From NCBI GenBank assembly GCA_029865445.1, contig JAOUGY010000002.1:1-36225 (forward strand): DNA of 36,225 nt, in the 5' to 3' direction. This DNA is from Acidimicrobiia bacterium (GTDB taxonomy: Bacteria; Actinomycetota; Acidimicrobiia; Spongiisociales; ZC4RG35). The notes under the pieces were generated by a model. The model ran no database searches. It worked only from the letters and a program-made list of their open reading frames with translations, and was not told the origin of the DNA. This document shows positions 294 through 29,790 of the stretch, piece by piece. A program made the position numbers and the translations under genes. Every line of letters starts with the position of its first letter. The stretch's first letter is position 1.

Positions 294-436
294 GTTGCTG
301 TGGTCCCCCGGAGCGGAGCGAGGGGGGAAGGGACCCACAAGCGAAGCGCCGTGGGTAGGGGGACCCTCAACGCGGGAAACGGGTTCCTTGGGTACCACCG
401 TGTCGTGGGATGGTGCCGTTGCGAGTCTCCCAGCGC
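294..436 (+). repeat. Copy B (left arm + 5' half of core, truncated) of the same repeat family
   Basis: 28-nt exact match TCCCCCGGAGCGGAGCGAGGGGGGAAGG (304-331 vs 16226-16253). Then CTCAACGCGGGAAACGGG...TTGCGAGTCTCCCAGCGC. Homology to copies A and C ends near 436. Confidence 0.8.
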
Positions 437-467
437 GCTGCGCATCGCGCACAGCCCGCCGCGTGGC

Positions 468-485
468 CGAGCGAAGCGAGGCCCC
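468..485. repeat. 18-mer CGAGCGAAGCGAGGCCCC abutting the stop of a minus-strand gene
   Basis: Exact second copy at 17463-17480. Both are preceded by GCGTGGC, and both end 0-4 nt from the stop codon of a minus-strand CDS. Confidence 0.7.
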
Positions 486-8128: not shown

Positions 8129-9240
8129 CAGATTCCGTATCCCAAGCCCAACTCGGCGTCCCAGCGGCGGAGCTGCGCCAGGATCGGTGGCGTGACTGGC
8201 ACACCGGCCCCTATGTTCTCTTCCTCCGCCACGGCTTCGGGCTCGCCGGCGATGTAGATCCGGCTCTGATCGGGTTCCTTGGCCGAGCCTCGAATCAGGT
8301 CGAAGGTCACGTCCATGTCCGCGGCCACTTGCTCGGGGGGCCGGAAACCTGCCACCTTGATCGCTCCCATGAAGTGACCCATCGCCGGCGGAGCCTCACC
8401 GGAGGCCCCGGCGATCCGGTCGGACAGCGGAGATCCGGCGAGCGCGCCACACAACAGCTCCGCCATCAAAGACAACCCGAAGCCCTTGTGGCCTCCCGAC
8501 TCCGTCCCCTCCCCACCCAACGGAAGCAGCGGGGCGGCATACGTGAGCGTGTCGTTCTCGTCAAGGTCTGGGGTGCCTGCGAGCGAGGACACCCATCCTT
8601 CGGGAAGTCCCCGGCCCTCGCGTAGCGCCGTTTCGATTTTGCCGACAGCCACTGCGGATGTGGCCATGTCCAGGTAGAAGTCGGTGTCCCGACCCGGGAT
8701 GGTGACCGCCAGCGGGTTGGTTCCGAGGATCGAATCCACCCCGTATGTCGGCGCCACCCGGCGCCCGCTGTTCGACAAGCTCAAACCGATGAAGCCTCGC
8801 TTCATCGCCCGGTGAGCCCAGTAGCCGGCATACCCGAAATGACTGCTGTTGCGAACCGCCACGAAACCGGCCCCGTGCTGGTCGGCCATGCCCATTGCCT
8901 CGTTCATGGCGCGTGCGGACACGACGATCCCGATTCCGTTTCCTCCGTCCAGTACGCCGGTGGTGGGGCTGCCGGCCTCGAACCTCATGTCGGGCTCCGT
9001 GGCGATCACACCCCGCTGGAGTCGCACCAGGAAGTAGCTGGTCCGGGCCACACCGTGGCTGCGGATGCCCCGCAGGTCGGCACTGATCAGTACGTCGGCG
9101 ACCAGAGCCGCGTCGTCGTCCGGCACGCCGAGAACCGCAAATGCGTCCTTCACGTAGGCTCGAAGGACATCGGCCCCGATCCGTACCGTTCCTTCGGGTA
9201 GTGAATGAGATTCGACCACAGACCTCCTCGAGCGAATCAT
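8128..9240 (-). CDS. Ldh_2 family (malate/L-lactate/sulfolactate) dehydrogenase, ComC-like
   Basis: 370 aa. The motif SADLRGIRSHGV and the overall length are typical of Ldh_2. It is the first gene of a 3-gene operon with the split decarboxylase. Confidence 0.75.
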   Translation of the reverse strand: MIRSRRSVVESHSLPEGTVRIGADVLRAYVKDAFAVLGVPDDDAALVADVLISADLRGIRSHGVARTSYFLVRLQRGVIATEPDMRFEAGSPTTGVLDGGNGIGIVVSARAMNEAMGMADQHGAGFVAVRNSSHFGYAGYWAHRAMKRGFIGLSLSNSGRRVAPTYGVDSILGTNPLAVTIPGRDTDFYLDMATSAVAVGKIETALREGRGLPEGWVSSLAGTPDLDENDTLTYAAPLLPLGGEGTESGGHKGFGLSLMAELLCGALAGSPLSDRIAGASGEAPPAMGHFMGAIKVAGFRPPEQVAADMDVTFDLIRGSAKEPDQSRIYIAGEPEAVAEEENIGAGVPVTPPILAQLRRWDAELGLGYGI

Positions 9241-9282
9241 ACAAAATCGATTCCATCAGATTTGCTGCTGGAGCCTCAGGTC

Positions 9283-10404
9283 ATGCCGCTCGACCCGATC
9301 GGGGCTCGACCCCGGCGGGCGCCCGTTCGAAAGCCCATCCCGATCTTGTTTCTGACACTGGTGGTGTCGGGAGCTTTCATCCTGACGCAGCCCACGCCAC
9401 CGGCTTTCGAGTGGACCGCCGTGCCCCTGCCGGATGGTGCCAACCTCGACAGCTTGGTGGCGACCCAGGCCGGATTCGCCGTCGCCTCCGGGGCGTACGC
9501 CGACGGTTCGATCTGGACGTCTGCCGACGGCGAGGAATGGGTGAGGATTCCGCTCCCCCGGGCGCCCACCCGGGTCATCCCGGACGGCGACGATCTCGTG
9601 ATCTATGACACCCGGACCGCATCCCGGATCACGGCTGGGGGAGGCATCACAGAACTCGACCTGCCACAACTCCTCCGCACCGGCTACGGATCCGGACGAC
9701 CGGGCATCGTCCCTGGCCGGGCCGGTCTGATCGCCCACTCCGCGATGGGTGACCTGTACCAGGCCGGCCGTCACGGACCCTTCCGGCTGGTCGTCGGATC
9801 GGACCAGTGGAAGACCGCGACGGACATCTCGTTCGGATCGCGATGTTCCCCACCAGGGCGCGTCGGACCGGACCTTCCACCCGTGATCTCCACACCGACC
9901 GGATATGTGGCCTTCATCGCCGCCAGAGACGCATCGGCGGTATGGCCCATCTGCGAGCCCGTGCCATGGACATCCGCCGACGGTTCTACCTGGAGCCGCC
10001 AGGCTACAGAGTCTCCATTTGGCGTCGGTGCCTACATCTCGGACATCGCCTGGAACGGCGATCACTGGGTCGCAGTCGGAGGCGTCGCATTCGACGCTCC
10101 CGCCCTGTGGATATCGGATGACGGGCTCACCTGGCTCCGGCGCAACGCGCCATCGGCCGGAGAACCGTACGAGCTGGTCGCCGTTTCCGCCGGTCCGTCC
10201 GGATTCATCGCCATCGGTCGGTTGCGGGAGCGACCCGGCCTCGCCGGATGGGCTTCGGCGGACGGCTCGTGCTGGGAAACGCTCCCCGAAGAAGTGGCCG
10301 GACGGAGCGTCGCATTCAGCGGCGACCGCGTACTGCTCACTGACCGAACCCTGTCCGACACCACCTGGCTCGGAATCCTCCAGCGCCCCCTCAGCTCTTG
10401 CTGA
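9283..10404 (+). CDS. Membrane-anchored hypothetical protein with beta-propeller-like W-x-S-x-DG-x-x-W repeats
   Basis: N-terminal TM segment IPILFLTLVVSGAFIL. Four repeats: IWTSADGEEW, PWTSADGSTW, LWISDDGLTW, GWASADGSCW. ATG 9283 was chosen because the longer ORF would overlap the divergent gene. Confidence 0.6.
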   Translation: MPLDPIGARPRRAPVRKPIPILFLTLVVSGAFILTQPTPPAFEWTAVPLPDGANLDSLVATQAGFAVASGAYADGSIWTSADGEEWVRIPLPRAPTRVIPDGDDLVIYDTRTASRITAGGGITELDLPQLLRTGYGSGRPGIVPGRAGLIAHSAMGDLYQAGRHGPFRLVVGSDQWKTATDISFGSRCSPPGRVGPDLPPVISTPTGYVAFIAARDASAVWPICEPVPWTSADGSTWSRQATESPFGVGAYISDIAWNGDHWVAVGGVAFDAPALWISDDGLTWLRRNAPSAGEPYELVAVSAGPSGFIAIGRLRERPGLAGWASADGSCWETLPEEVAGRSVAFSGDRVLLTDRTLSDTTWLGILQRPLSSC

Positions 10405-10405
10405 G

Positions 10406-10489
10406 AAGCAACAAGCAACAAGCAACAAGCAACAAGCAACAAGCAACAAGCAACAAGCAACAAGCGACAGGCAACAGGCAACGGGCGAC
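10406..10489 (+). repeat. Heptanucleotide tandem array (AAGCAAC)x8 perfect + 4 degenerate units
   Basis: Read directly from the sequence. Units 9-12 are AAGCGAC AGGCAAC AGGCAAC GGGCGAC. The array starts 1 nt after stop codon TGA 10402-10404. Confidence 0.95.
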
Positions 10490-10580
10490 AGCTGAGGAAC
10501 GAGGACTCTCCGCCTCACGGCTTCGCCGGACTCCCCTGCCGTGCGAGAAACGAGACCCACCGCCACCCGCCTCCCTCGAG

Positions 10581-10616
10581 TTTCCTCCCCCAGCGGGGGA
10601 GGCGGCGCCGAAGGCG
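10581..10616 (+). repeat. Hairpin module H1 (CCTCCCCC-AGC-GGGGGAGG) + H2 (CGCC-GAA-GGCG)
   Basis: The 22-mer TTTCCTCCCCCAGCGGGGGAGG is identical to 29170-29191. At both loci it is followed by a short tri-loop hairpin. Confidence 0.85.
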
Positions 10617-10638
10617 ACGGAGGGGGAGAAAGCCCACC

Positions 10639-10659
10639 GCGCACAGCGCACAGCGCACG
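10639..10659 (+). repeat. Short heptamer array (GCGCACA)x3, last unit imperfect
   Basis: Read directly from the sequence. It occupies the same relative position as the GTACCCG array at 29248-29275. Confidence 0.75.
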
Positions 10660-10815
10660 GCGGCCCGGGCGCAGCTCGGGCCTAGACTCTCCCCAGCACG
10701 GATCGAGCGAGACCAGTTCGCCGAGGGCCGGCGTGGCGGTTACCGGGTGACGCCGCGACGGGACCAGCTGGTGGTGTCGCCGTCGACGTCGTCGACCCCA
10801 CCCGGACGAGGAAAC

Positions 10816-15167: not shown

Positions 15168-16221
15168 CGTGTTTGGTATCGGCATGATCGGGCTGGGCCG
15201 GTGGGCCAACGCCCACGGGGACGCCGCTGCTCGCTCCGACCGCGTTCGCATCGTTAGCTGCTTCGCTCGGACAGAGGCTGCCAGGGACGACTACCAGCGG
15301 CGGTATGGCGTCGATCGGACCGCCGGGTCGATCGACGAGTTGCTGTCGGACCCGGACGTCCACGGGGTCGTGATATCGACACCCAACGACCTCCACGTCG
15401 AACATGCCCTCGCCGCCGTCAGAGCCGGCAAGCCTGCCCTCATCGACAAACCTGTGAGCGTCGACACCGCGGAAGGTCTCACCCTCTTGCGTGCTGCGGT
15501 TTCAGCCGGCGTGGCCGTCGGTGTCGCTCATCATCCCCGCCGCCTGGCCGGCCTCCGGGCGGCGAAACGTTGGCTCGAGTCGAGCGAATCGGGCAGGGTT
15601 CGCCTCGCCCATGCCGACTTCTCCAACAACCGGAGCGCCCACATGAGGCCCGATGCCTGGCACCGGTCGGCCCGTGGGTCCGAGGCCGGCGTTCTCATCC
15701 AAGTGGGTATCCACCAGGTCGAGAACATGCTGTACCTGCTGGGCCCAGCGGTCTCGGTGAATGCCCGCTTCCGTCATGACACGCTCGGTCCCACGATGCC
15801 GGACCTGGCGGCGGTGACGATGGTGCACGCCTCAGGGGCCGTGTCGAGCGTGACGAGCAGTTGGACGACCCCCGGGTACTTCTCGGTCGAGCTCCTGGCA
15901 ACAGGCGGCAACCTCACGTATCGCCTCGACCACCGCAGGTGGACGAGCGGCGACGTCGACGACTTCGGCGAGGCCTGGCTCCATCCCACCGATGGGGAAC
16001 GAACGCCCCTCCCGACAGGCAAGGGCGACCCGTTGAGAGAGCAACTGGAGGAACTACCTGCCGGAACGATGGAGGTCGACGTCGTTGCGGGCCTGCGGGC
16101 AACCATGGTGGTGGAAGCGTCGGTTCAATCGGCCCAGTCCGGTGGCGCCGCCATCGACCTCGCCTCTCTCGCCCAAGCCGCCGGCGCCACCCCCGAAGAG
16201 ATCAGCCTGCTCCTGACCTGA
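15160..16221 (+). CDS. Gfo/Idh/MocA family oxidoreductase
   Basis: GIGMIGLGRWA Rossmann start and LIDKP motif. The start is ambiguous (GTG 15160 or GTG 15169). Confidence 0.8.
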   Translation: MVDVFGIGMIGLGRWANAHGDAAARSDRVRIVSCFARTEAARDDYQRRYGVDRTAGSIDELLSDPDVHGVVISTPNDLHVEHALAAVRAGKPALIDKPVSVDTAEGLTLLRAAVSAGVAVGVAHHPRRLAGLRAAKRWLESSESGRVRLAHADFSNNRSAHMRPDAWHRSARGSEAGVLIQVGIHQVENMLYLLGPAVSVNARFRHDTLGPTMPDLAAVTMVHASGAVSSVTSSWTTPGYFSVELLATGGNLTYRLDHRRWTSGDVDDFGEAWLHPTDGERTPLPTGKGDPLREQLEELPAGTMEVDVVAGLRATMVVEASVQSAQSGGAAIDLASLAQAAGATPEEISLLLT

Positions 16222-16467
16222 GTTGTCCCCCGGAGCGGAGCGAGGGGGGAAGGTTCCTGCCGGCCGGAGGCCGGGAGGTACGGGGCTTCTCAACGCGGGA
16301 GGCGGGTTTCTTGTGTGCCAGGTCCCGCGGGATGGCGCCGTTGCGAGTCTCCTGGTGCCGGCGGGTTGCGGGTGTCCACCTCACAGTGTGGTTCCGCGTT
16401 GAGCATTCCCCCTACCTGCCATCTCTCTTCGGTCGATGGCAGGGACCTTCCCCCAAGGGGACAACTC
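16220..16467 (+). repeat. Copy C (complete) of the structured repeat, closed by terminal inverted repeats. MITE-like element or structured ncRNA.
   Basis: The 11-bp TIR GAGTTGTCCCC (16220-16230) pairs with GGGGACAACTC (16457-16467). A further 17-bp pairing joins 16245-16261 to 16438-16454. The core is homologous to 103-293. Confidence 0.85.
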
Positions 16468-17373: not shown

Positions 17374-17462
17374 CACCGGAGGGTAGAGACCGCAGAATCT
17401 CGACGCCTTGCGATAAGCAGAACGCCGCGGCTACAGCTTCTGGCCCACGGCGCGTGGCGCAC

Positions 17463-17480
17463 CGAGCGAAGCGAGGCCCC
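17463..17480. repeat. Second copy of the 18-mer CGAGCGAAGCGAGGCCCC
   Basis: Exact match to 468-485. It lies 4 nt from the stop of the minus-strand CDF gene. Confidence 0.7.
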
Positions 17481-24613: not shown

Positions 24614-24621
24614 GGGGAGCC

Positions 24622-24661
24622 AGTCATCGAGTCATCAAGTCCCCAAGTCAGCGAGTCGGCT
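24622..24661. repeat. Octanucleotide array AGTCNNNN x5
   Basis: AGTCATCG AGTCATCA AGTCCCCA AGTCAGCG AGTCGGCT. It sits in the only sizeable gap of the minus-strand operon, 8 nt upstream of the CoA-transferase start codon. Confidence 0.85.
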
Positions 24662-27830: not shown

Positions 27831-27903
27831 CGGTGACAGTCGTCGTCTCGATCAGTGAGACATGCCCTGTCTGCTGCCGGGACTCACGAAGGAAGGCAGC
27901 TGC

Positions 27904-29046
27904 ATGGACATCGACTTCTCTCCCGAACAGGAGCTCTTCCGAGCCACCGTGCGTGACTTCTGCGACCGGGAGATCACCAGGGACTACGTCCGGGAATGCG
28001 ATCGCGAGCACCGGCCACCCACCGAGCTCTACCGCAAACTCGGCGAGCAGGGCTGGCTTGGGATCAACATCCCCGAGGAATACGGGGGCAGCGGCGGAGG
28101 TGCCGTCGAGGTCGCCATCCTGCTCGAAGAACTCGGCCGGGCATTCCTCGACCTGTCGTTCTGGGTGTTTCGTGCCGTCACCTGGGGTGGGCTGGCGATC
28201 AGTCGCGACGGCACCGAAGACCAGAAACGGGAGCTCTTGCCCAAAGTCGCCACGGGCGAACTGTCGGTGTGTTTCTCCCTCACCGAACCCGACGCCGGTT
28301 CGGACGCTGCCTCTATCACACTGAAGGCCGAGGAGGACGGCGACGAGTTCGTTCTCAACGGCCAGAAGGTGTTCACTTCGGGCTTCAAGGTGAGCGATCT
28401 CGCCGTCGTCGCCGCCAGGACCGCAGCCGGCGAGAAGAAGCACCACGGAATCACGAATCTCCTCGTCGACGCCAGGGCCCCCGGTCTCGAATGGAGCCCC
28501 ATCGAGACACTCGGCCACTGGCCACTCGGTACCGCCCTTCTCACCTTCACCGACGTTCGGGTTCCCAAGTCGATGATGCTGGGCACTCTGCACGACGGCT
28601 GGCGGGATCTCGGCGTGTACCTGCGGTATGAGAGGTTGTGTCTGTCGGCCGCGAGGACTGGAGCGGCCAAAGCGGCGCTGGCCGACGCGATCGCGTACTC
28701 GAAGGAGCGGAGACAGTTCGACCAGCCAATCTCCAACTTCCAGGCTGTTGCGCACCGACTCGCCGACATGCAGGTACAGACCGAGATCTCCGAGATGCTC
28801 GTGTACCGGTACGCATCCCGCCTCGATCGGGGTCTGGCCACACCGCGGGATGCCGCCATCCTCAAGCTGTTCGCCTGCGAGGCGTACAAGTCCGTTGCCG
28901 ACATGGGCCTGCAGGTCCTCGGGGGCTACGGCTACACGATGGAGTACGACCTGCAACGGCACTTCCGCGAGTCGAGGCTCGGGGTCATCGGCGCCGGCAC
29001 ATCCGACATCCAGCGCAACATCATCTCCAAGACGATGGGCCTGTGA
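27904..29046 (+). CDS. Acyl-CoA dehydrogenase
   Basis: N-terminus MDIDFSPEQELFR, motif FSLTEPDAGSDAAS, C-terminus GGYGYTMEYDLQRHFRESR. SD GAAGGAAGG lies upstream. Confidence 0.9.
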   Translation: MDIDFSPEQELFRATVRDFCDREITRDYVRECDREHRPPTELYRKLGEQGWLGINIPEEYGGSGGGAVEVAILLEELGRAFLDLSFWVFRAVTWGGLAISRDGTEDQKRELLPKVATGELSVCFSLTEPDAGSDAASITLKAEEDGDEFVLNGQKVFTSGFKVSDLAVVAARTAAGEKKHHGITNLLVDARAPGLEWSPIETLGHWPLGTALLTFTDVRVPKSMMLGTLHDGWRDLGVYLRYERLCLSAARTGAAKAALADAIAYSKERRQFDQPISNFQAVAHRLADMQVQTEISEMLVYRYASRLDRGLATPRDAAILKLFACEAYKSVADMGLQVLGGYGYTMEYDLQRHFRESRLGVIGAGTSDIQRNIISKTMGL

Positions 29047-29050
29047 GATG

Positions 29051-29106
29051 AGTCCCCAGCCCCCAGTCCCCAGTCGCCAGTCCCCAGCCCCCAGTCCCCA
29101 GTCGCT
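29051..29106 (+). repeat. Heptanucleotide tandem array, 8 units, organised as a 28-nt super-unit x2
   Basis: (AGTCCCC AGCCCCC AGTCCCC AGTCGCC) followed by (AGTCCCC AGCCCCC AGTCCCC AGTCGCT). The array starts 4 nt after stop TGA 29044-29046. Confidence 0.95.
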
Positions 29107-29169
29107 TGGCGTTGGGGCACGAGAACGCCGGTCCCGCAAGTTCCCACATCCGTCCAATCCACCATCCTG

Positions 29170-29207
29170 TTTCCTCCCCCAGCGGGGGAGGTGTCCCCGG
29201 AGGGGAC
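29170..29207 (+). repeat. Hairpin module H1 (CCTCCCCC-AGC-GGGGGAGG) + H2 (GTCCCC-GGA-GGGGAC)
   Basis: The 22-mer is identical to 10581-10602. H2 has a different stem sequence but the same tri-loop hairpin shape. Confidence 0.85.
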
Positions 29208-29247
29208 GGAAGGGAGACCGAGGCCCGCAGTGCCGGCTCCGGTCCAA

Positions 29248-29275
29248 GTACCCGGTACCCGGTACCCGGTACCGG
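29248..29275 (+). repeat. Heptamer array (GTACCCG)x3 + GTACCGG
   Basis: Read directly from the sequence. Confidence 0.9.
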
Positions 29276-29292
29276 CCTCACAAAGCGAGGCC
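29274..29292 (+). other. Hairpin GGCCTC-ACAAAGC-GAGGCC just upstream of the SD of the next gene
   Basis: 6-bp stem. SD GAGGAGG (29296-29302) and ATG 29308 follow. Confidence 0.5.
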
Positions 29293-29307
29293 CGATGAGG
29301 AGGACGC

Positions 29308-29790
29308 ATGATCACCGATGAGGCCAGGGCTTGGGCCCAACAGACCTATCCAGACTATGTGTTCGATGTGGGTAGGCGCGACATCATCAAATACGCGCAC
29401 GCGATCGGCGAGACCGATCCCGTCCATTTCGACGCCGCGGCAGCACACGAGGCCGGGTACTCCGACATCGTCGCTCCACCGTTCTTTCCGTACGTGATTC
29501 GGATGCACGCCGCCCACCTGGTCCCACGGGACGAATTGGCACCGGACGGTTCTGCCACCGCCGACGTGCCCCCGGTAGGGGCGACACGAGCCATGGCAGG
29601 TGAGATCCACATGGAGCTGGGTGCCCCGGTGGTCGCAGGCGACGTCATCACCGTGAAGAAACGGATCCTCGAGATGTACGAGAAGGAGGGCCGGTCCGGG
29701 AACCTCGTCTTCGTGAAGATGGAGTTCACCTTCCTCAACCAGCAGGGCGACCTGGTCGCCCGTGAAGAGTTCACGAGGATCTACCGATGA
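29308..29790 (+). CDS. Hotdog-fold hydratase subunit (MaoC_dehydrat_N / FAS1-like dehydratase domain)
   Basis: 160 aa. N-terminal region DIIKYAHAIGETDPVHFD. Paired with a second small hotdog gene by an ATGA overlap. Confidence 0.7.
   Translation: MITDEARAWAQQTYPDYVFDVGRRDIIKYAHAIGETDPVHFDAAAAHEAGYSDIVAPPFFPYVIRMHAAHLVPRDELAPDGSATADVPPVGATRAMAGEIHMELGAPVVAGDVITVKKRILEMYEKEGRSGNLVFVKMEFTFLNQQGDLVAREEFTRIYR

Follow-up and report, generated by a model that had tools for sequence, protein, structure and literature searches.

A mosaic intergenic repeat flanked by heptamer arrays, probably of REP/BIME kind, between an acyl-CoA dehydrogenase and a dehydratase gene in the Acidimicrobiia

Results

A composite repeat fills the dehydrogenase–dehydratase spacer

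The 36,225-nt window analysed here (contig JAOUGY010000002.1 of the Acidimicrobiia bacterium assembly GCA_029865445.1; coordinates without further label refer to it) carries on its plus strand an acyl-CoA dehydrogenase gene (27862-29046; Pfam Acyl-CoA_dh_N/M/1), which ends in a TGA stop codon at 29044-29046 and is followed by a FAS1-like/MaoC-type dehydratase gene starting with the ATG at 29308. The 261-base spacer that separates these two genes of a fatty-acid-type operon is occupied by a composite repeat, which we call element 2 (29047-29292). Because the flanking genes point in the same direction and overlapping genes follow downstream, the spacer lies inside a co-directional gene cluster, and the operon setting proposed in the first-pass annotation of this DNA is supported.

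Element 2 starts with array A (29051-29106, plus strand), eight AGTCCCC-type heptamers that form a 28-nt unit present twice (AGTCCCC AGCCCCC AGTCCCC AGTCGCC, the final heptamer ending in T). Tandem Repeats Finder (TRF) reports it both with period 7 (7.6 copies) and with period 28 (2.0 copies, 100% match), and on the opposite strand the heptamer reads GGGGACT. A 63-nt spacer separates array A from the 22-mer TTTCCTCCCCCAGCGGGGGAGG (29170-29191); its sequence (29107-29168) is C-rich and contains a small hairpin, GGCGTT-N10-AACGCC (29108-29129). The core monomer, X (29169-29218, plus strand; covariance model R1, 67.2 bits, E 9e-19), consists of GTTT, the hairpin H1 (CCTCCCCC-AGC-GGGGGAGG, 29173-29191), the hairpin H2 (GTCCCC-GGA-GGGGAC, 29193-29207, extending to TGTCCCC-GGA-GGGGACG at 29192-29208) and a decayed G-tail, in which GAAGGGAGAC stands in place of GAGGGGGAGA. 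Array D (GTACCCG x3.7, 29248-29273; TRF) follows on the same strand, as does the terminal hairpin E (29274-29292), a decayed variant, GGCCTC-ACAAAGC-GAGGCC, that has AAGCGAGG(G)CC in common with the family consensus GGCCCGAGCGAAGCGAGGGCC. The Shine-Dalgarno sequence GAGGAGG and the ATG of the dehydratase gene (29296-29310) lie beyond the repeat and are not covered by it.

The stop codon, the eight heptamers, the 63-nt spacer, the 22-mer, H2, array D, the last hairpin and the translation start all stand where the first-pass annotation had placed them. Its (GTACCCG)x4 at 29248-29275 needs one correction: the array is there, but it amounts to x3.7 and ends at 29273, the fourth unit (GTACCGG) merging into the hairpin. 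Our scan of 29044-29307 returned no promoter and no intrinsic terminator, no T run follows H1, H2 or E, and the RNA fold of the whole spacer is unexceptional (z = -1.8 and -1.9).

Two copies of a lineage-wide modular family

The 22-mer of element 2 recurs at 10581-10602; a search of the window for further matches yielded none even at 3 mismatches, and none arose in 100 shuffles. The second occurrence belongs to a sister copy, element 1 (10405-10682, plus strand), which is made up of CAACAAG x11 (10406-10482), a degenerate module B, X (10580-10630), a GCGCACA-type array x4.6 (10631-10662) and hairpin E (10662-10682). By their heptamers, element 1 belongs to a CAACAAG...GCGCAC type and element 2 to an AGTCCCC...GTACCCG type, and the two have a 56-nt core in common with 82% identity. 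Strong matches to a covariance model of the core number exactly two in the window, 10580-10630 (78.3 bits) and 29169-29218 (67.2 bits). The H2 stems of the two elements had been described as unrelated, a description that does not hold: they differ by one compensatory base-pair flip (CGCC/GGCG vs CCCC/GGGG) and by the first base, and both are common alleles within the family.

We collected this family by scanning public genome and metagenome collections with the 23-mer GTTTCCTCCCCCAGCGGGGGAGG, which is present in identical form in 9 genome stretches and 20 metagenome stretches, with many copies on contigs of one sample series (Ga0224500-Ga0224512). Individual genome or metagenome stretches compared with the window carry L-numbers below. 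About 25 core copies occur in ~150 kb from the window's lineage, and all copies examined from this lineage lie between predicted open reading frames (ORFs). The same module order is found at ~11 independent loci on metagenome contigs of the lineage: an upstream stop codon, array A (CAACAAG or AGTC[C/A/G/T]CC), module B (~75 nt), the core (GTTT-H1-H2-GGAGGGGGAGAA), array D (GCGCA[C/T]C, or GTACCAA/GTACCCG) and hairpin E (GGCCCGAGCGAAGCGAGGGCC). Elements 1 and 2 are therefore two copies of a lineage-wide modular repeat family, and the earlier suggestion that they have one architecture filled with different heptamers extends well beyond the window. A small recurrent set of heptamers serves these ~11 loci; AGTC[C/A/G/T]CC arrays appear at further loci, and GTACCAA and GTACTGA arrays take the array D position in other copies. 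Seven is the commonest tandem-repeat period (54 arrays) in 283 kb of mostly Acidimicrobiia loci; 943 kb of Sphingomonas loci show no enrichment of this period.

Module B is itself related to the core. In the window's lineage it is struck by model R1 on the opposite strand with 40-44 bits, which identifies the module as an inverted, diverged version of X, here written X'; full units are 'inside-out' doublets, X'-linker-X, as in L140, L145, L146, L150 and L155. Module B (X' and an A/C-rich linker) corresponds in element 2 to the spacer 29107-29168, which is decayed past recognition; the minus strand there gives no significant match to R1. Both copies in the window are partly decayed, element 1 keeping a decayed inverted partner (9.5 bits) and element 2 having no partner and a broken G-tail.

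The composite is a mosaic with no obligate unit, its modules being found separate, shuffled and in tandem. The core may be preceded by the full module B, by its first half (L141) or its second half (L155), by a different 22-nt module (L146), by hairpin E (L147) or directly by heptamers (L139). Arrays occur without a core (L157, L158); the core occurs without arrays in other Acidimicrobiia metagenome-assembled genomes (MAGs), Acidobacteriota and Sphingomonas (L121-L123, L126, L129 and the Sphingomonas copies); and H2 with its G-tail occurs without H1 (L155). Tandem higher-order units of 97 nt or ~185 nt are also seen, the 97-nt unit being present twice or three times at the same locus in different samples. 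Modules A, B1, B2, H1, H2 with G-tail, D and E thus recombine in varying order and copy number. The window itself offers an isolated array D with hairpin E and no core (433-484, plus strand; GCGCATC GCGCACA ... GGCCGAGCGAAGCGAGGCC), which abuts the TAG stop codon of a minus-strand ORF (485-1315). The treatment of the composite as a single unit, which the first-pass annotation had made conditional on its modules not occurring independently, is abandoned in view of 433-484 and of L157, L158, L121-L123, L126, L129 and L155.

The core monomer crosses phyla

Core X has three parts: H1, a hairpin of G and C runs (CCTCCCCC-loop-GGGGGAGG), H2 with a GTG[G/T] head and a C(GNA)G triloop, and the G-tail GGAGGGGGAG. 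The H2 stem varies but pairs in every copy, with more than 14 different stems, mostly around a GNA triloop closed by C-G. Each H2 was folded separately, since MAFFT misaligns this length-variable hairpin and makes a formal covariation count unreliable. GTGG precedes H2 in the copies of Acidobacteriota, Sphingomonas sp. GlSt437, Novosphingobium, L122, L126 and L128, GTGT in the window's lineage and the Sphingomonas copies displayed, and GCGG in element 1. Base pairing is possible between the G-tail and the 5' end of module B, which would close a multi-hairpin fold.

When genomes were scanned with the H2 and tail pattern TGTCNCCGNAGGNGACGGAGGGGGAG, it was found in at least 119 stretches, more than 100 of them from Sphingomonas and with several matches per genome. 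Among the matches listed, Sphingomonas has 259 monomers, 246 of which sit in 123 X-spacer-X' doublets (median length 120 nt, median spacer 26 nt), and the most common H2 variant there contains a G-T wobble. X-like monomers, often as inverted pairs, are also present in Caulobacter, Phenylobacterium, Oscillospiraceae, relatives of Geobacter and Acidobacteriota. A rumen Oscillospiraceae MAG (L125, 5680-5950) has three ~100-nt tandem units with an H1-like hairpin, followed by a full X, and the monomer therefore reaches the Bacillota. Apart from the H1 loop, the Acidimicrobiia and Sphingomonas monomers are almost identical. Such near-identity suggests either horizontal spread or a strong constraint acting on both.

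Two further observations concern other bacteria. In Sphingomonas spp. (L162-L280, e.g. L170 6721-6746), the abundant 120-nt inverted doublet of two X monomers has the form (G)ATCCTCCCCC...GGGGGAGGATC. Chloroflexus islandicus (L064 7060-7980, L018 680-930) has clusters of a different repeat that contains hairpin H1 and continues with GGGGCTAGGGGTGGGGGCC, a canonical G-quadruplex motif, beside AT-rich units such as TTTTGCGTCTTTTTGCGGCTATTCC. Viral contigs had no match to the core pattern. In Rfam, the window has no match at the gathering threshold, the element has only chance-level matches at E<=10, and the Sphingomonas and Chloroflexus loci have no match.

Arrays are replaced between near-identical genomes

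The identical dehydrogenase protein is encoded on a 7.1-kb contig of GCA_029858645.1, which ends inside H2, and close homologs of the dehydrogenase are named Acidimicrobiia. L120 and the window are 99.5% identical, yet array A of L120 has another unit order and is 18 nt longer. This short-read contig terminates within X, where a break is unsurprising because dispersed repeats are expected to end short-read contigs.

In all relatives, down to 83% protein identity, the dehydrogenase–dehydratase junction bears repeats, but these differ: (AGCGATC)x4 then (ACGTGAG)x5 in L157; (AGTCCCR)x6, 65 nt, then (GACCTGA)x4 in L158 and L159; and GGCCCAC and GTCGGCY arrays, which together form one long hairpin, in L160 and L161. 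L157 (4147-4222) and L158 (4147-4292) have an identical dehydrogenase protein and 99% identical DNA flanks. Their upstream arrays, 31 nt and 101 nt respectively, are unrelated in sequence, and every unit of the downstream arrays shows one and the same single-base difference (GACGTGA in L157, GACCTGA in L158), which indicates concerted turnover. The length heterogeneity that the first-pass annotation had proposed to look for is thus present between near-identical genomes, both here and in L120.

Copies follow gene ends in the sense orientation

All cores of the window's lineage read in the sense direction of a neighbour. For elements 1 and 2, L139, L140, L146, L150, L155 and probably L145 this neighbour is the upstream gene, with which the core is co-directional; for L141 and L147 it is the downstream gene. 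A copy from another lineage (L128) is antisense to both of its neighbours. The start of the element lies 0-5 nt past the stop codon in ~12 of 13 cases examined, in line with the closeness to stop codons first noticed in the window, and between convergent genes its far end also abuts the stop codon of the second gene. The compactness of the genome accounts for part of this bias. The gene-end preference is nevertheless real, because element 1 and L150 adjoin the stop codon despite 70-130 nt of other DNA downstream. The additional preference for a TGAG junction that had been suspected from three cases has faded, TGAG occurring at only ~7 of 16 junctions, where it is weakly enriched over the expectation for a genome rich in TGA and in G+C.

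Other repeats and genes in the window

A second isolated array D with hairpin E of the same family, again without a core, lies at 17450-17479. The 399-aa ORF upstream of element 1 (9205-10404) has no Pfam match and a modest G+C content at third codon positions (0.75), and is a predicted gene only. A direct repeat, GCTGAG (10400-10405 and 10491-10496), brackets the CAACAAG array of element 1 and may be due to chance. A separate repeat of ~240 nt at 16222-16460, with ~1.5 further copies in 99-460, has terminal inverted repeats (GTTGTCCCC...GGGGACAAC) and resembles a MITE (miniature inverted-repeat transposable element); it begins directly after a TGA stop codon (16219-16221), and its copies at 104-277 and 16282-16455 are 84% identical. 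Finally, an array with an 8-nt period, AGTCATCG AGTCATCA AGTCCCCA AGTCAGCG, sits at 24620-24660 in the 109-nt gap of minus-strand GFO/IDH and CoA-transferase genes, which makes it antisense to the AGTC orientation of element 2; the junctions in L160 and L161 that are syntenic to this gap also bear heptamer arrays.

Discussion

We favour, as the probable reading, that element 2 is a locus-specific assembly of a lineage-wide mosaic intergenic repeat, similar to repetitive extragenic palindromic (REP) sequences and bacterial interspersed mosaic elements (BIMEs), and selfish or neutral rather than a dedicated regulator. As to the mode of spread, we infer that the hairpin modules move and recombine as non-autonomous DNA, probably via single-stranded hairpin intermediates, as REPINs (inverted pairs of REPs) do with the REP-associated tyrosine transposases (RAYTs), while the arrays would grow, shrink and homogenise through replication slippage. 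A compact genome would tolerate the element nowhere but in the few neutral bases past stop codons, and there only if it points in the sense direction. Once transcribed, element 2 would place stable stem-loops between the dehydrogenase and dehydratase cistrons and spare the ribosome-binding site downstream; an influence on expression, if any, would be a by-product and not what the element is for.

Several observations weigh against this proposal. Among the 13,794 ORFs of a six-frame translation of ~2 Mb of loci, phmmer found no match to E. coli RayT at E<=1, and the genes between neighbouring Sphingomonas elements, represented by the longest ORFs, look ordinary on reading their translations, a judgement made without a Pfam search. 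A possible target-site duplication, the flanking GATGAG at 29047 and 29294, was rejected, being matched by 7% of shuffles and absent from other copies. We found no clean pair of filled and empty sites, as every relative has some repeat at the dehydrogenase–dehydratase junction; this full occupancy fits an insertion hot spot as well as selection for a spacer or structure. The near-identity of a 45-nt monomer across phyla is hard to obtain by neutral decay alone, and the uniform sense orientation in the window's lineage also counts against the proposal.

Alternatively, the element might act on the transcript. It could be a portable RNA module placed behind stop codons or between cistrons, which would set the ratio of upstream to downstream expression: the C-rich, unstructured array would load Rho or another single-strand RNA binder, H1, H2 and E would pause or terminate transcription or block 3' exonucleases, and the array length would be the tuning knob. 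We regard this as possible, if rather unlikely. It would account for the sense orientation of all cores in the lineage and for a start 0-5 nt past the stop codon even where spare DNA follows (element 1, L150), as well as for the occupied junction in all relatives examined. The G-T wobble of the majority Sphingomonas H2 (among the matches listed) favours the folding of one strand, and between the stop codon and H1 C outnumbers G by a factor of 1.96 in element 2 and of 1.47 in element 1. Moreover, E. coli REPs and BIMEs are able to stabilise the upstream mRNA, attenuate transcription and stall ribosomes when they lie within ~15 nt of the stop codon. The skew of C over G, which would resemble a Rho utilisation (rut) site, had to be rejected as a family property, however, since it is seen in elements 1 and 2 but not in L146 (0.86) or L140 (0.85). 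An RNA device would also sit badly with arrays replaced wholesale between 99%-identical strains, with modules that are shuffled and partly decayed (element 2 itself having a broken G-tail and no partner X'), with the antisense copy in L128 and with the lack of any U-tract terminator. C-G-closed GNA triloops are, in addition, typical of stable DNA hairpins, whereas selected RNA hairpins more often have tetraloops. A constraint or effect at the transcript level is possible all the same, and we keep it under consideration because of the orientation and stop-codon biases, the junction occupancy in relatives and, for elements 1 and 2, the C-rich sequence behind the stop codon. A more ambitious version appears improbable to us: a functional, portable 'end-of-gene' module in which the hypervariable post-stop array and the cross-phylum REP-like hairpins would work at the transcript level, by attenuation linked to Rho or to ribosomes or by protecting the 3' end, slippage would tune the expression ratio of adjacent metabolic genes like a contingency-locus-type rheostat, and the near-identity of the monomer in Sphingomonas, Acidobacteriota and Oscillospiraceae would reflect horizontal spread or recognition by a host factor conserved universally (e.g. 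the 16S rRNA 3' end, complementary to GGAGGUG).

It is also conceivable, although quite improbable, that the element works as a structural site in DNA, with (GGGGACT)n forming G-quadruplexes or the C strand forming i-motifs, and with the hairpins extruded into cruciforms to which nucleoid proteins, gyrase or polymerase would bind, as in BIMEs, so affecting local supercoiling or replication. Both the GCGAAGC type, to which hairpin E belongs, and C(GNA)G loops are recognised as stable mini-hairpins of DNA, and the minus strand of element 2 offers two blocks of three G4-5 runs, spaced by ACT or CT. GGGGACT is the exact Nostoc heptamer that forms G-quadruplexes in vitro (PMC4692102). Most arrays of the family (CAACAAG, GCGCACC, GTACCAA, AGCGATC) are incapable of forming quadruplexes, though; such a site does not predict the sense-orientation bias; and Rehm et al. 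saw no regulatory role for the Nostoc and Xanthomonas repeats (PMC4692102). Hardly credible, in our opinion, is a free-standing structured small-RNA gene or riboswitch-like element built from X or X'-linker-X. The compensatory H2 changes across lineages, and the pairing of the module B 5' end with the G-tail that closes a multi-hairpin fold, would suit it, but the whole-spacer fold is unexceptional (z = -1.8), Rfam has no match and no promoter was found. Dozens to hundreds of copies as tandem units or inverted doublets beside unrelated genes, and the partial decay of both copies in the window, likewise speak against it.

Neither REP/BIME-like repeats nor heptamer simple-sequence repeats are new in themselves. 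What appears to be undescribed in the searchable literature is that an Acidimicrobiia lineage combines them regularly, that the monomer is tripartite and that it is nearly identical across phyla; our literature search returned no paper on Acidimicrobiia or Sphingomonas repeats of the kind of element 2 or of the doublets. In this uncultured lineage, intergenic DNA is filled by a REP/BIME-like mosaic together with heptamer repeats, and the occurrence of a nearly unaltered 45-nt monomer in Sphingomonas and several further phyla is relevant to the published notion of vertical inheritance of REPIN-type repeats. Sphingomonas faeni and S. aurantiaca are culturable hosts in which the mobilising enzyme and effects at the RNA level can be sought. 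On the practical side, the elements break short-read assemblies (as in contig L120) and are usable as hypervariable strain markers.

How does the family compare with known repeat systems? Element 2 is no intrinsic terminator in the sense of a hairpin with a U-tract, and the composite, which has neither terminal inverted repeats nor a consistent target-site duplication, is no MITE. BOX elements of Streptococcus pneumoniae and mycobacterial interspersed repetitive units (MIRUs) are, like our family, modular and intergenic, with variable tandem internal units, often in operons and polymorphic in length between strains. Their units measure 40-100 nt against 7 nt here, and MIRUs have been linked to translational coupling through short ORFs, of which we saw none in the family of element 2; nor is there any sequence similarity to BOX or MIRU. 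The small dispersed repeats (SDR) of cyanobacteria, attributed to Elhai et al. 2008, are reportedly tiny nested hairpin modules in genomes that also bear heptamer repeats. Module B is reminiscent of them in that it resembles the hairpin TCTCCCCCC-GCT-GGGGGGAGA with a 24-nt mini-hairpin inserted; no sequence relationship emerged, and the nesting may equally well be due to divergence of an inverted X.

The arrays themselves, which are head-to-tail 7-nt units, intergenic and of strain-variable length, belong with heptamer simple-sequence repeats of the short tandemly repeated repetitive (STRR) type. The AGTCCCC unit is a rotation of CCCCAGT, which we take to be the sequence of cyanobacterial STRR1, and the Nostoc heptamer GGGGACT is its reverse complement. 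Heptamer repeats elsewhere include GGGGA(C/T)T in Nostoc, GGGAATC in Xanthomonas and TAACTGA in Beggiatoaceae (PMC4692102, PMC4679880). Those of Xanthomonas and Nostoc lie near the upstream ORF and occur between the same gene pairs in related strains, with varying length and sequence, and no function has been found for them (PMC4692102). Our arrays are likewise tandem intergenic heptamers that lie nearer the upstream ORF and also occur within operons, as between pecE and pecF in Nostoc. In contrast to the cyanobacterial and Xanthomonas repeats, their host is an actinobacterium with 65% G+C and several heptamer types per genome, and the arrays regularly bracket a REP-like core, with a conserved hairpin as the closing module.

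The closest likeness is to REP sequences and their derivatives. REPs are extragenic imperfect palindromes of ~20-40 nt, repeated many times in a genome, and the family likewise consists of short, G+C-rich imperfect palindromes (H1 and H2) that are extragenic and present in many copies. REPs have a conserved GT(A/G)G head 5' of the palindrome (PMC2817692); a GTGG-type head, which may be its counterpart, stands before H2 in most lineages, with GTGT in the window's lineage and the Sphingomonas copies displayed and GCGG in element 1. As in REP, REPIN and BIME sequences, the copies are found after gene ends and inside operons, show no consistent target-site duplication and form mosaics with other conserved motifs. 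The Sphingomonas inverted doublets of 120 nt with a 26-nt spacer have a REPIN or BIME-1-type organisation, whereas element 2, a singlet, is not a REPIN in the sense of an inverted REP pair with a short spacer. The mosaic structure is that of BIMEs, but the sequences are unrelated to those of E. coli, so that the relation is one of analogy and not of homology. Unlike REP/RAYT systems, the family came without a RAYT gene in ~2 Mb of loci. Its monomer is tripartite (H1, H2 and G-tail), the window's lineage has mainly singlets in one orientation or 'inside-out' X'-linker-X doublets, and heptamer arrays, which are not a feature of REPs or BIMEs, flank the core. Finally, REPIN-RAYT systems are described as vertically inherited, whereas X is nearly identical across phyla.

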